Positions 7,246-31,725 of a stretch of 32,000 nt of DNA are shown here, piece by piece. This stretch comes from Aeropyrum pernix K1. GTDB taxonomy: Archaea > Thermoproteota > Thermoprotei_A > Sulfolobales > Acidilobaceae. Under the pieces are notes generated by a model that searched no databases, had not been told where the DNA came from, and saw nothing but the letters and a program-made list of their open reading frames with translations. Position 1 is the stretch's first letter. Each line of letters begins with the position of its first letter. Position numbers and translations under genes: made by a program. Location of the stretch: positions 1,350,001-1,382,000 of the forward strand of contig NC_000854.2 of NCBI RefSeq assembly GCF_000011125.1, in the 5' to 3' direction.

Positions 7246-7507
7246 ACGTAGACATAGGTGGAGAACAGAGCTTTTAAAACCCGTTCACAGCGAGAAAGCC
7301 TGTGTCCATACTAGAATGGAGGTTGACGAGGACGGTGAGGATATAGAGGTTTACGACATAAGCTGTTAAAACTCTAGTTAACACAATATCCTGAAGCTGG
7401 ACGGAGCAGCGGGATGAAGACTACTCCCCAGACCGAGGCAAGTCTCGAGATGACGACAATTCCTTTAGCAGACCGCGTCACCACGGGAACCAAGCTTTAA
7501 AACAAGG

Positions 7508-27996: not shown

Positions 27997-28332
27997 TCAG
28001 AAGCCGAACATGCCTGAGAGGCCGGAGAGGTCGACCTCTTCCTCCTTCTTCTCCTCTTCCTCTTCTTTCTTCTCCTCCTCGGCTTTCTCCTCTGCTGCTG
28101 GTGCCGCTGCCGGGGCGGCCGCTGCGGCTGCCACAGGAGCCGCCACGGCCTGCTTCAGCACTTCCTCCAGGTTAACCTCCTCCAGGCTGGCTACTAGCAT
28201 CTTTATCTTTGCCTCGTCGACTTGCATGCCGATGGCTTCAGCAGCCTTCTTGAGGGTCTCTTCGTCTATCTTGCCGCCCGCGTAGTATATGGCCAGGGCG
28301 AGGTGTATGTACGCCTTGCCCTCCTGAGCCAT
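27997..28332 (-). CDS. rpl12: Ribosomal stalk protein P1 (archaeal L12)
   Basis: 111 aa. N-terminal dimerisation helix region, Ala/Pro hinge, and an acidic tail ending EEEVDLSGLSGMFGF. GGTGAT Shine-Dalgarno upstream. It occupies the last position of the L11-L1-P0-P1 cluster. Confidence 0.95.
   Translation of the reverse strand: MAQEGKAYIHLALAIYYAGGKIDEETLKKAAEAIGMQVDEAKIKMLVASLEEVNLEEVLKQAVAAPVAAAAAAPAAAPAAEEKAEEEKKEEEEEKKEEEVDLSGLSGMFGF
28043..28120. repeat. Copy 1 (in P1/L12 gene) of a 78-nt perfect direct repeat shared with the P0 gene
   Basis: TCCTTCTTCTCCTCTTCCTCTTCTTTCTTCTCCTCCTCGGCTTTCTCCTCTGCTGCTGGTGCCGCTGCCGGGGCGGCC read at both 28043-28120 and 28432-28509. Confidence 0.9.
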
Positions 28333-28385: not shown

Positions 28386-29420
28386 TTAGAAGCCGCCGAA
28401 TATGCTGTCGAGGCCGCTGAGCTCTTGGTCTTCCTTCTTCTCCTCTTCCTCTTCTTTCTTCTCCTCCTCGGCTTTCTCCTCTGCTGCTGGTGCCGCTGCC
28501 GGGGCGGCCTCCTCTATACCGAGTTCTCTTGCCTTGTCGCCGAGCAGGGCCACCACTGCGGCCTCCTCTGCTATGGCCTTCCTGACTACATCCTCTACGG
28601 TTCCAGGCGCTATGAACCCTGTCTCGGCAGCTAGGGCGGAGGCGGCGAGAGCCGCCTTCACTATGGCTGACTCTACAGCCTCAGGCACTGGCATATAGAC
28701 GATCTCCGTTGCGAGGCCTAGGGCCTCCTTTGCTGCGTCTATTACATCGCCTCTGAAAGCCTCTATGTCTGGCCTCAGGAGGTCCTCAGTTATGAGCACG
28801 CCCCCGTCTATAGCGAACTTTACTCTAACTCCCTTCTCAATGGGTCTTATGCCCAGAGCCATTAGGAGGCCTGCTAGGTCTTCGCTTATAACGTCGCCTG
28901 GCTTGGCAACGACGGTCTCCTTTGCAATGTATATCTTACCGCCCCTAACCTGATACTGTATTCGGAGCTTTCCAAAGACGCTTAGTATGGGCCCGGGGGT
29001 GAGGTTTGTCATCCCCTCGGGTATCCTGATCTCCGTCTCGGCTTTATCCCCTGGCTTGACGGGCATGGCGACCTTCTCCTTCTCAACCTCCTTAACTATT
29101 TTGAATGGGTTGCCGTCGGCGAAGACTAGGAGCATCTGCCCTCTGACTAGATCGTCAAGCAGATTATCATCCAGCTCCAGGCCAGCAGCCTTCATGGCCC
29201 TCAGTATGATCCTCTTCTTAGCCACCATCATGGGATACTTCTTCCACAGCTTCTTCCTAACCCTCTGCACCACGAAGGTTGGCGTTCCCGTAAGGTCTGC
29301 AAACAGCACTACCCTGTGCTTACTGAAGAGTTCTTCAAGCTCCCTAAGCATGAGGGTCTTCCACTCGGGTATGGGCTTCTCTCTCTTATACATCTGACCC
29401 ACGAGGCTCACTACACTCAC
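28386..29420 (-). CDS. rpl10: Ribosomal stalk protein P0 (archaeal L10)
   Basis: 344 aa, GTG start 4 nt after the L1 stop. L10/P0 core, then a hinge and an acidic tail ending EDQELSGLDSIFGGF. Confidence 0.95.
   Translation of the reverse strand: MSVVSLVGQMYKREKPIPEWKTLMLRELEELFSKHRVVLFADLTGTPTFVVQRVRKKLWKKYPMMVAKKRIILRAMKAAGLELDDNLLDDLVRGQMLLVFADGNPFKIVKEVEKEKVAMPVKPGDKAETEIRIPEGMTNLTPGPILSVFGKLRIQYQVRGGKIYIAKETVVAKPGDVISEDLAGLLMALGIRPIEKGVRVKFAIDGGVLITEDLLRPDIEAFRGDVIDAAKEALGLATEIVYMPVPEAVESAIVKAALAASALAAETGFIAPGTVEDVVRKAIAEEAAVVALLGDKARELGIEEAAPAAAPAAEEKAEEEKKEEEEEKKEDQELSGLDSIFGGF
28432..28509. repeat. Copy 2 (in P0/L10 gene) of the 78-nt perfect direct repeat
   Basis: Identical to 28043-28120, and the flanks diverge immediately on both sides. 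Confidence 0.9.
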
Positions 29421-29424
29421 CCCA

Positions 29425-30078
29425 TCAGCCTATGGCGGGGACCTCTACCGGCGGCCCCATGGTCTTCTTGACATAAATCCTGGAGATCTTACCCCGGCCG
29501 AGCCTATTCTCTATAACCTGGAGTACTGCGAGCGCGTTCTCGGCAAGCTCTCTAGGACTCATATCCTCCGTTCCAATCCTGGCCATGACCTGGGGCTGGT
29601 TTCTAATCCTAACCCATACGGCAGCCTTATACCTCTCTATCAAATCCTTTATGTTAGCGTTAGGCGGCACCGGTACGGGAGCCTTACCCCTAGGCCCAAG
29701 GGCAGGGCCCAGTATACGGCCTGCAAGACCCATGAGGTCTGCTCTCACTAGAACCCAGTAGCACCTCCGTGCCAGCTTCTTAACCTCCCTCTTATTCTGT
29801 GACAAGTTCTGTAGGTCCTGCCTGTTTAGGACCTCGACGCCAGCCTCCTTAGCCTGGAGCTCCATGTCTCCGTGCGCCACTACACACACCTTAGCCTCCT
29901 TCGGGGGCCTGTTGGGGAGGAATACCGTCTCCCTTATCCTCGCCTGCGGGCTCTTCAAATCTATATCCTTGAGGGCAACTATAATCTCTACTGACTGCTT
30001 GAACCTCTTGCCCCTGCCAAGCTTGAGAGACTTGTCTATAGCCTCCTCTATGCTGGCGAGCACCGTTTCCTGCGACAA
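29425..30078 (-). CDS. rpl1: 50S ribosomal protein L1
   Basis: 217 aa with full-length L1 similarity (FKQSVEIIVALKDIDLK ... LGPALGPRGKAP). TTG start preceded by GGGGGGTG. Confidence 0.95.
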   Translation of the reverse strand: MSQETVLASIEEAIDKSLKLGRGKRFKQSVEIIVALKDIDLKSPQARIRETVFLPNRPPKEAKVCVVAHGDMELQAKEAGVEVLNRQDLQNLSQNKREVKKLARRCYWVLVRADLMGLAGRILGPALGPRGKAPVPVPPNANIKDLIERYKAAVWVRIRNQPQVMARIGTEDMSPRELAENALAVLQVIENRLGRGKISRIYVKKTMGPPVEVPAIG

Positions 30079-30123: not shown

Positions 30124-30450
30124 TTAGCCTTCCGCCTCCTCCCACTTCTCCTCGTACTTGGCTAGGACTGCGTCGTAAACACCCTCATCAACCTGTCTCG
30201 TAACTTCCTTGGGGTCCTTGCCGTCTACGGTTACACCTATACTCCTGGCCGAGCCTAGTATGGTCTTAACAGCTGCCTTCAGCGTCTTCGCGAGCAGGTC
30301 CGGCTTCTTCTCGATGGCAATCTCAACAATCTTCTCGAAGGGTAGGTCCCCTATCTTCTGGTGGATAGGATCCCCGCTGGGCGCCTTAGCGCTCACCGCC
30401 TTCAGCAGCAGCTCGGTGGTGGAGGGCTTCACCTGGCTTCCCTTTACCAT
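30124..30450 (-). CDS. rpl11: 50S ribosomal protein L11, C-terminal (rRNA-binding) domain only; N-terminal domain not encoded at this locus
   Basis: 108 aa. The whole length matches the L11 C-terminal domain ([11 protein letters not shown]...[11 protein letters not shown]...[40 protein letters not shown]). ATG has a GAGGGTG Shine-Dalgarno 8 nt upstream. In-frame stops at 30472-74, 30484-86 and 30490-92. Confidence 0.85.
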
Positions 30451-30532
30451 AACGCTTACACCCTCAGAGAGCTAGAGTCGTACCTAGGGTTAAATGCGTA
30501 AACAAGCCGGGGCGTCGCCGGGTGGCTCGGGC

Positions 30533-30991
30533 TTACTCCTCCACGGGCCTGACCTCGTCGATGGGTATAGTGGCGGTGGCTCTGAAGAGCGGCTCGAGCA
30601 GGGATACAGTGACCTGGCCCTTTGACTGGTTAACGTCTATAACCCTAGCCTTCATGCCCTTGAACGCTCCAGCAACTATCTCGACAACCTGGCCTGGCTT
30701 CAGTGCGGGTATCTCCACCTCAGGCTTTACGAGTTTCATGACCTCCTCGAACTTGAGTATGAGGGGCCTCCTCCGCTTTACATGTCTGAGCCCCCTGGTA
30801 GCATCGTACACGTCGCCAGGGTCGTGCGCCTCAAGTATAACATAGCCTTTTATCCGGGGGGGCACTATTATGCTCCTGATGTCCAGTCCTAGGGCTCTCG
30901 CCCTCTCCGCTATTATAGTGGCTACGTTGACTTCGGCACCGCTTGTGACTAGTATGGCGTAGAACCTAGCGTCAACACCTCCCTCCAACAC
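30533..30991 (-). CDS. spt5: Transcription elongation factor Spt5 (archaeal NusG)
   Basis: 152 aa. NGN domain (FYAILVTSGAEVNVA...GYVILEA) plus KOW motif (GQVVEIVAGAFKGMKARVIDV). GTG start 3 nt after the secE stop. Confidence 0.92.
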   Translation of the reverse strand: MLEGGVDARFYAILVTSGAEVNVATIIAERARALGLDIRSIIVPPRIKGYVILEAHDPGDVYDATRGLRHVKRRRPLILKFEEVMKLVKPEVEIPALKPGQVVEIVAGAFKGMKARVIDVNQSKGQVTVSLLEPLFRATATIPIDEVRPVEE

Positions 30992-30994
30992 CTC

Positions 30995-31177
30995 TCACCC
31001 CGAAGTCAGGATTATATAGCCTAGGTGTATCAGGTATCCTATCCCGCCTACTAGAGCAAACCCCAGCAGGTTTAGTTTTAGGAGCAGCGAGTACTCCTCC
31101 TCATCCGGCTTCCTGGCCAGGGTCAGTATACGGCGCCAGGCTACTATGTACTCTCTAGCAATGTCGACTATACCCAA
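30995..31177 (-). CDS. secE: Preprotein translocase subunit SecE (Sec61 gamma)
   Basis: 60 aa. Amphipathic N-terminus (RILTLARKPDEEEY) and one C-terminal TM helix. Conserved position directly upstream of spt5. TTG start. Confidence 0.85.
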   Translation of the reverse strand: MGIVDIAREYIVAWRRILTLARKPDEEEYSLLLKLNLLGFALVGGIGYLIHLGYIILTSG

Positions 31178-31200: not shown

Positions 31201-31725
31201 CTAGGATCTTCTGAGCCTACTAAGCTTAATAGCCTCCTCAAGGGTTTTCCTCATATTCCTCCAGTGCGCCCCCTCCCAATACACCTTGCCACAGCGGGTG
31301 CAGACGTAGAACTTGTCTACAACCCTATATGTGGCCTCCGGCACCCTATCCCTCACTGCCTCCTTATCCACAGGCTCGAGAACGCCGTTGCAGATGGGGC
31401 ACCTGCTCCTCTCCGGCTCGAGCCTCAGGTCCAAGCCAGCCTTGGCTGAAAGCTCGGCGAGCCTCTCCTCTGTAGAGAGGGATTCTATGTAGATGGATTT
31501 TAAACCCATCTTCCTAGCCTTGCTGTGCAGCCATCTGTCCCTCGTTACGATAATCCTTCCAGAACTCTTAGCTATCCTGAGTATCTGCCAGTCCGAGTAC
31601 GTTCTAGAGTAGAGTGTATCATACCCCATTAGCCTAAGCCACTTAGCCAGGCTGCCGAGCATCGAATCTACTATGAACCTCGCCTCTCCAATCTCCTTAT
31701 CTCCCCTCCTGCCCACGGGTCTCAC
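31201..31725 (-). CDS. Mut7-C / DUF82 family PIN-like RNase-domain protein with C-terminal zinc ribbon
   Basis: 174 aa. FIVDSMLGSLAKWLRLMGYDT ... IIVTRDR ... CPICNG ... CTRCGKVYWEGAHW is the characteristic DUF82 layout. GTG start (31725 or 31716). Confidence 0.85.
   Translation of the reverse strand: MRPVGRRGDKEIGEARFIVDSMLGSLAKWLRLMGYDTLYSRTYSDWQILRIAKSSGRIIVTRDRWLHSKARKMGLKSIYIESLSTEERLAELSAKAGLDLRLEPERSRCPICNGVLEPVDKEAVRDRVPEATYRVVDKFYVCTRCGKVYWEGAHWRNMRKTLEEAIKLSRLRRS

Follow-up and report, generated by a model that had tools for sequence, protein, structure and literature searches.

Archaea, bacteria, and eukaryotes all conserve the N-terminal domain (NTD) of ribosomal protein uL11, a textbook component of the GTPase-associated centre that contacts elongation and release factors and, in bacteria, triggers RelA. 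It carries a Pro/Gly-rich helix contacting translational GTPases and forms the thiopeptide (thiostrepton/micrococcin) pocket. The C-terminal domain (CTD) can act on its own: L11-C76, a C-terminal fragment engineered from bacterial L11, binds the 58-nt GTPase-centre rRNA (H43/H44) and stabilises it; the structures of this fragment are PDB 1ACI, 1HC8, 1QA6, and 1Y39, of which 1HC8 and 1QA6 show the complex with RNA. Bacteria lacking L11 (E. coli relC/rplK and thiostrepton-resistant Bacillus megaterium) are viable and thiostrepton-resistant, at a cost in rate and accuracy. Together with the yeast rpl12a/b double deletion, these uL11-deficient mutants demonstrate that ribosomes can work, at a cost, without the uL11 NTD or even the whole protein. 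The canonical archaeal uL11, represented by the proteins of Pyrococcus furiosus (4V6U chain BH) and Methanocaldococcus jannaschii (5COL/5D8H), consists of an NTD of about 60 residues (PF03946), a CTD, and C-terminal helices, and its gene lies ahead of those of L1, P0, and P1. Within the ribosome, the NTD is a mobile module contacting translation factors and the CTD binds rRNA; yeast without uL11 is viable but slow and has lower factor-dependent activity, and in archaea the recruitment of factors occurs largely via the C-terminal tails of the P0(P1)n stalk (PMC9122527).

The window analysed here, a 32-kb stretch of the Aeropyrum pernix K1 genome, contains a gene cluster in the conserved archaeal order (secE-spt5-)L11-L1-P0-P1, the same as in Pyrodictium delaneyi. 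Its features, in the direction of transcription of rpl11 and with positions counted within the window, are as follows.

30995..31177, upstream of spt5: secE, at the expected position in the cluster.
30533..30991, minus strand: spt5 (NusG homologue), 152 aa, with complete NGN and KOW domains (PF03439, 75.9 bits; PF00467, 32.3 bits).
30451-30532, minus strand: spt5-rpl11 spacer, 82 nt, with three in-frame stops and SD-like and TATA-like elements.
30124..30450, minus strand: rpl11 (uL11), 108 aa, ATG start; a stub of 8 residues at the N-terminus is followed by the rRNA-binding CTD of L11 and the archaeal C-terminal helices, and the NTD is absent.
29425..30078, minus strand: rpl1 (uL1), 217 aa, directly downstream of rpl11 (PF00687, 153.5 bits).
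28386..29420, minus strand: rplP0 (uL10/P0), the stalk-base partner of uL11, 344 aa; its homologue carries PF00466/PF17777 in related loci.
27997..28332, minus strand: rplP1 (aP1 stalk protein), 111 aa; PF00428 in related loci.

The CTD, the C-terminal helices, and the place of the gene ahead of L1-P0-P1 are thus as in canonical archaeal uL11, whereas the whole NTD is absent. We consider it highly probable that this is a functional uL11 which naturally lacks the factor-contacting NTD, and that this form is common to Aeropyrum, metagenome-assembled genomes (MAGs) of Acidilobaceae and related Desulfurococcales-type MAGs, all hyperthermophilic Thermoproteota. The sequence itself is not new, as the product is 100% identical to the database entry ‘50S ribosomal protein L11P’ of A. 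pernix K1 found in a protein cluster search. In the openly searchable full-text literature we found no account of a uL11 that naturally lacks the NTD, be it from Aeropyrum, Acidilobus, or other archaea; one article in which both Aeropyrum and L11 are mentioned (PMC5887453) contains them in unrelated references.

A preliminary description of the locus had proposed that the L11 slot encodes only the rRNA-binding CTD, and the domain searches agree with it. The sole L11 match in Pfam is PF00298, the L11 RNA-binding domain, which covers residues 8-75 with 74.1 bits (cutoff 21.4 bits) and profile positions 2-69 of 69, while the Pfam search with PF03946, the NTD family with the Pro/Gly-rich helix-1 motif, gave no match to the 108-aa protein even at E ≤ 1. 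In the archaeal L11 equivalog model (PRK01143/NCBIfam NF002232), residues 9-101 align to profile positions 71-163 of 164, and the score of 125.3 bits falls short of the model’s cutoff of 162 bits. The same residues were aligned by phmmer to 71-163 of P. furiosus L11 (4v6u_BH, 164 aa); M. jannaschii L11 (5col/5d8h) was also matched. The AlphaFold2 model of the protein has a mean pLDDT of 85.8, with residues 1-6 disordered, and its best Foldseek match is the CTD of M. jannaschii L11 in the P-stalk base complex (5d8h_C, rmsd 0.9 Å over 86 columns), followed by isolated L11 CTD-RNA complexes such as 1hc8 (1hc8_B, TMt 0.95; TM 0.92-0.95 on the target for 1hc8 and 1y39). By CTD sequence, fold, and gene order, the 108-aa protein is a uL11 orthologue, and it falls outside the two-domain definition of this family. 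The earlier statement that all 108 residues correspond to the CTD needs to be narrowed: the CTD match stands, but residues 1-8, which are disordered in the model, and the archaeal/eukaryotic C-terminal helical extension at residues ~76-105 lie outside the Pfam CTD proper. Regarding domain content, the Aeropyrum protein is essentially the same as L11-C76; however, the latter is a laboratory construct, whereas the former is a naturally selected product of its lineage and carries the archaeal C-terminal extension.

The possibility that the start of rpl11 was mis-called and that the gene extends upstream was considered and ruled out by the in-frame stops. The spt5 stop codon ends at 30533, which leaves a gap of 82 nt to the rpl11 ATG, and in this spacer the L11 frame contains TAG at 30474-72, TAG at 30486-84, and TAA at 30492-90, exactly as noted in the preliminary description. 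Because these stops lie directly upstream of the ATG, before which the in-frame codons read ..LSEGVSV-M, the protein cannot be longer. The spacer also contains the previously proposed expression signals, namely GAGGGTG, an SD-like element at 30465-30459, 8 nt before the ATG, and the A/T-rich TATA-like element TTTACGCATTTAAC at 30502-30489. Both were read from the sequence only, and the consensus used by the promoter/terminator scanner is that of bacterial sigma-70, which is uninformative for an archaeon. In P. delaneyi, the L11 ATG is placed 2 nt after the spt5 stop. In a DNA alignment of the two loci no coding remnant of the NTD was found in the Aeropyrum spacer, and the homology starts only at ..AAGCC just before the CTD.

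The first explanation to be weighed is a trivial one, a deletion of about 180 nt introduced into the genome record by sequencing or assembly, which the preliminary description had listed as an option. The short length of L11 is all that speaks for it. In Logan assemblies of at least five separate SRA runs, spt5 and L1 again flank the 82-nt spacer and the 108-aa L11, with identical sequence, which excludes such a deletion; moreover, the architecture recurs in other genera and in other genomic contexts, and this option is thereby refuted with practical certainty. CTD-only L11 proteins (102-116 aa, PF00298 alone) make up 29 of the best 120 protein clusters retrieved, and several of these clusters occur on dozens of contigs. 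L1 and P0 always come next, and the upstream context is one of three: spt5, as in the window and, with a 53-nt spacer, in Aeropyrum-like MAGs, a divergently transcribed P1 gene in Acidilobaceae MAGs (loci L001-L003, one of them on a 1.11-Mb contig), or a CBS-domain gene 65-100 nt upstream of L11 in a further group (L040-L042). In every case and every lineage, an in-frame stop precedes the start by 1-12 codons. In the neighbor-joining tree of the CTD, the short forms group together with a bootstrap of only 51/200, which is suggestive, but no proof, of a single origin.

It could also be assumed that the short gene is a decaying pseudogene and that a functional full-length rpl11 was relocated elsewhere in the genome. 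We found no point in support of this and regard it as most improbable. The dN/dS of CTD-only L11 is 0.036-0.078 where dS could be estimated and was not saturated, which indicates a functional gene under strong purifying selection and no pseudogene. Besides these values of 0.04-0.08, no lineage shows a broken reading frame, the SD- and TATA-like signals are kept, and the sole Aeropyrum-named L11 homologues among the matches of the CTD search are those of 108 aa. Some side observations concern this set of proteins. In three 116-aa CTD-only proteins from metagenomes (P0051, P0061, and P0091), there is an insertion of 8 residues, and the conserved SGDPxHxKIGDL loop of the CTD is replaced by a rewritten sequence (..QALGKNEKALEKISSQPFSERLGAIGDLP..). 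PGAP labels CTD-only L11 of MAGs (P0292, P0077/P0088) as ‘hypothetical protein’ because the scores stay under the L11 equivalog cutoff, so that annotation systematically misses a core ribosomal protein; equivalog models under-call this form.

The nearest full-length relatives of the short proteins are those of Pyrodictium, Pyrofollis, and Pyrodictiaceae MAGs, the CTDs of which are 82-88% identical to that of Aeropyrum L11. They have in common with the short proteins the derived junction ‘VKPPTTTELLL’; unlike Aeropyrum, they retain a foldable NTD of about 65 residues, in which PGPPLGP is replaced (e.g., by PAPPLSDSL, AAAAKQQLEQL, or QVSEDALSTL). In place of the near-universal NTD motif GGKAxPGPPLGPxLG there is GGEASPAPPLSDSLKK in Pyrodictium, GGQAAAAKQQLEQLSD in P0036, KPGAKEVPPALEQAAS in P0110, and GGQVSEDALSTLKK in Pyrofollis. 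The PF03946 score declines from 79.5 bits in a canonical Desulfurococcales MAG to 59.7 in Pyrodictium, 37.2 in P0036, and 36.8 in P0119, and then to 28.6 in P0110 and 23.6 in Pyrofollis, both below the cutoff of 32.9. In more distant Pyrodictiaceae-type pairs, the NTDs are 41-63% and the CTDs 74-93% identical; the corresponding values for canonical sequences are 69-83% and 82-89%. In these relatives the NTD thus changes much faster than the CTD. The Pyrofollis NTD is still predicted to fold (beta-alpha-alpha-beta-beta, pLDDT ~85), so that in Pyrodictiaceae and Pyrofollis the surface touching the factors was altered but the fold was retained. Judged from these comparisons, the NTD forms a graded series from canonical through degenerate to absent, the end point being Aeropyrum and Acidilobaceae. 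As with the NTD-less form, no description of the degenerating Pyrodictiaceae NTD was found in the openly searchable full-text literature. The proteins without the motif comprise those of Pyrodictiaceae loci L004-L021 and P0034, P0036, and P0110. A further L11-like protein, P0315 (107 aa), is seemingly devoid of the beta2-beta3 part of the NTD (..KEFAGISVGTPPVSQL..); it could represent either a further case in which part of the NTD was deleted or simply an incomplete sequence.

The second debatable issue is whether the NTD is missing from the ribosome or only from this gene. The gene may be split, with the NTD encoded elsewhere as a separate small protein that joins the ribosome in trans. The linker between NTD and CTD is flexible and the domains are structurally separable (PMC9122527), which makes such an arrangement conceivable. 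Small ORFs are easily missed in annotation, and the NTD searches at the A. pernix locus covered the 32-kb window. For these searches, an HMM was built from 14 crenarchaeal L11 NTDs and run with --max on six-frame translations. Its best match in the window had E=3, while 36 of 36 positive-control loci were detected at E ≤ 4e-22, and in the six-frame search of the CTD-only loci it found nothing. This search also rules out that the spacer or spt5 conceals an NTD in a different reading frame; the matches of 6-7 bits in the Spt5 ORF are noise, also present in the P0 ORFs of control loci. Fusion of the NTD to Spt5, which the preliminary description had denied on the grounds that spt5 is complete, does not occur either, as Pfam finds in that protein its NGN and KOW domains. 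The tblastn search of the window with five NTDs yielded noise apart from an overlap with the CTD start, so the earlier observation that no ORF of the window contains the NTD motif holds.

Three limited searches beyond the window likewise revealed no stand-alone NTD family. One genome per GTDB species was scanned by pattern and tblastn with nine Pyrodictiaceae-type NTDs and only two clade-specific peptide patterns, a set that a diverged stand-alone NTD would escape, and the 36 loci obtained (Pyrodictiaceae, DPANN, Nitrosopumilus, and others) included none of Aeropyrum or Acidilobaceae. When 1.84 billion representative proteins were searched with a profile, no such family was present among the best 150 of 298 matches; the short ones are canonical L11s with a frameshift or fragments from the ends of contigs. 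Alignment against 5.8 billion proteins, a search that turned out to retrieve short ones, yielded 17 short NTD-only sequences, none of them named as from Aeropyrum; all are partial or frameshifted L11s resembling those of Sulfolobus, Thermococcus, or DPANN. With the 69-aa Pyrodictium NTD as the only query, one candidate and no match were returned, and this result is uninformative, as the word index seemingly retrieves proteins of similar length. The isolated L11 NTD is not known to have an anchor of its own on the ribosome. The decay of the NTD in the sister lineage also points to a relaxed need for this domain, and the short gene keeps an apparent first strand of the NTD (KGGQ), which fits an internal deletion and not a split. 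Considering the negative searches within the scope given, this remnant, and the relaxed NTD of the sister group, we find a split gene unlikely.

The remnant corresponds to the following feature.

30424..30450, minus strand: MVKGSQVKP (codons 1-9), a putative remainder of the GG turn and strand beta1 of the NTD, joining the CTD start at ‘VKP/PTTTELL’, the presumed deletion junction.

The N-terminus of the short proteins reads M[VG]KG[GSA]QVKP, and MAFFT places their KG[GSA]Q on ‘VKVKGGQ’ of the full-length relatives, that is, on the end of strand beta1 and the GG turn. A weak local match of NTD residues 6-17 was obtained with tblastn at 30459-30424, reaching three codons upstream of the ATG (against IKIMVEGGNVKP). 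The peptide MVKGSQVKP thus looks like a leftover of the first NTD strand, but it comprises about 6-9 residues and the similarity could be due to chance. Such a leftover at the N-terminus suggests an in-frame internal deletion. It is proposed that constraint on the NTD was relaxed first, a state that would persist in Pyrodictiaceae and Pyrofollis, where the helix-1 Pro/Gly motif is replaced and the fold kept. An in-frame deletion would then have taken out the NTD core of about 55-60 codons, possibly between two ‘VKP’ codon triplets (GGxVKP/GPPL...EVKP/PTTTELL), and an internal Met of strand beta1 would have been turned into the start codon. Of all that is proposed here, this deletion history, which we infer from a few residues, is the least certain.

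Genuine loss of the domain, one of the options given in the preliminary description, is best supported by the data taken together, namely by the lineage-wide conservation of the short form, purifying selection, degeneration of the NTD in the sister lineage, and the beta1 vestige. We therefore find it likely that a whole lineage of free-living hyperthermophiles, among them the model organism A. pernix, translates with a GTPase-associated centre that lacks the uL11 NTD, after stepwise erosion of its motif. In the proposed arrangement, the CTD alone would bind H43/H44 of 23S rRNA next to P0, as L11-C76 does, and would stabilise the RNA fold of the GTPase-associated centre. The contacts of the NTD with aEF2, aEF1A, aRF1, and aIF5B would be dispensed with, and factors would be recruited by the P0(P1)n stalk tails together with the sarcin-ricin loop. 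The rationale of this proposal is that the stalk tails carry most of the archaeal factor recruitment, so that the CTD could keep its structural role while the NTD contacts become dispensable. Domain loss might instead have been followed by non-homologous replacement, with an unrelated protein or an element of rRNA or P0 filling the place of the NTD at the GTPase-associated centre. The idea comes from the lineage-specific and promiscuously binding proteins that archaeal ribosomes carry. It is hardly probable, as the length of P0 is ordinary (344 aa in Aeropyrum, 343-344 aa in Acidilobaceae, and 348 aa in Pyrodictium) and the cluster contains no additional gene.

If loss without replacement is the correct reading, then a universally conserved domain of uL11 is dispensable in an archaeal ribosome with a P-stalk. 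This would be surprising for a functional domain of such conservation, although uL11 is known to be non-essential elsewhere. The uL11-deficient mutants described above are laboratory strains with fitness defects, whereas here the NTD alone is gone, and its absence has become fixed in free-living organisms. CTD-only ribosomes should show an intrinsic insensitivity to thiostrepton and other thiopeptides and an altered factor-dependent control of GTPases; a uL11 of about 12 kDa is expected in purified 50S subunits and an empty NTD site in cryo-EM. The organism is cultivable and structurally well studied, and with the natural series of canonical, degenerate, and absent NTDs in cultivable archaea, the contribution of the domain to a ribosome that has a P-stalk can be studied. 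The same series can be used to look for what makes up for a missing NTD, be it H43/H44 of the rRNA, domain V of aEF2, or P0. It is also worth noting that phylogenies of concatenated ribosomal proteins that include L11 contain a lineage-specific gap of about 60 columns next to a fast-evolving NTD in the sister group.

A few minor observations concern the surroundings of rpl11. Just upstream of secE lies an ORF of 174 aa (31201-31725, minus strand), with a Mut7-C domain (PF01927) according to the Pfam matches of the identical locus in L043, and the arrangement is kept in Aeropyrum-like MAGs. The 32-kb window contains no tRNAs, and its only Rfam match is the C/D-box sRNA sR15 (RF01146) at 7410-7474 on the plus strand, full-length and with 63.9 bits against a gathering score of 40. 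The P1 and P0 genes share an 81-nt stretch (28040-28120 and 28429-28509) that is 99% identical and encodes the Ala/Pro hinge and the acidic tail (AAPAAAPAAEEKAEEEKKEEEEEKKE); the stalk tails may thus have undergone gene conversion or evolved in concert.
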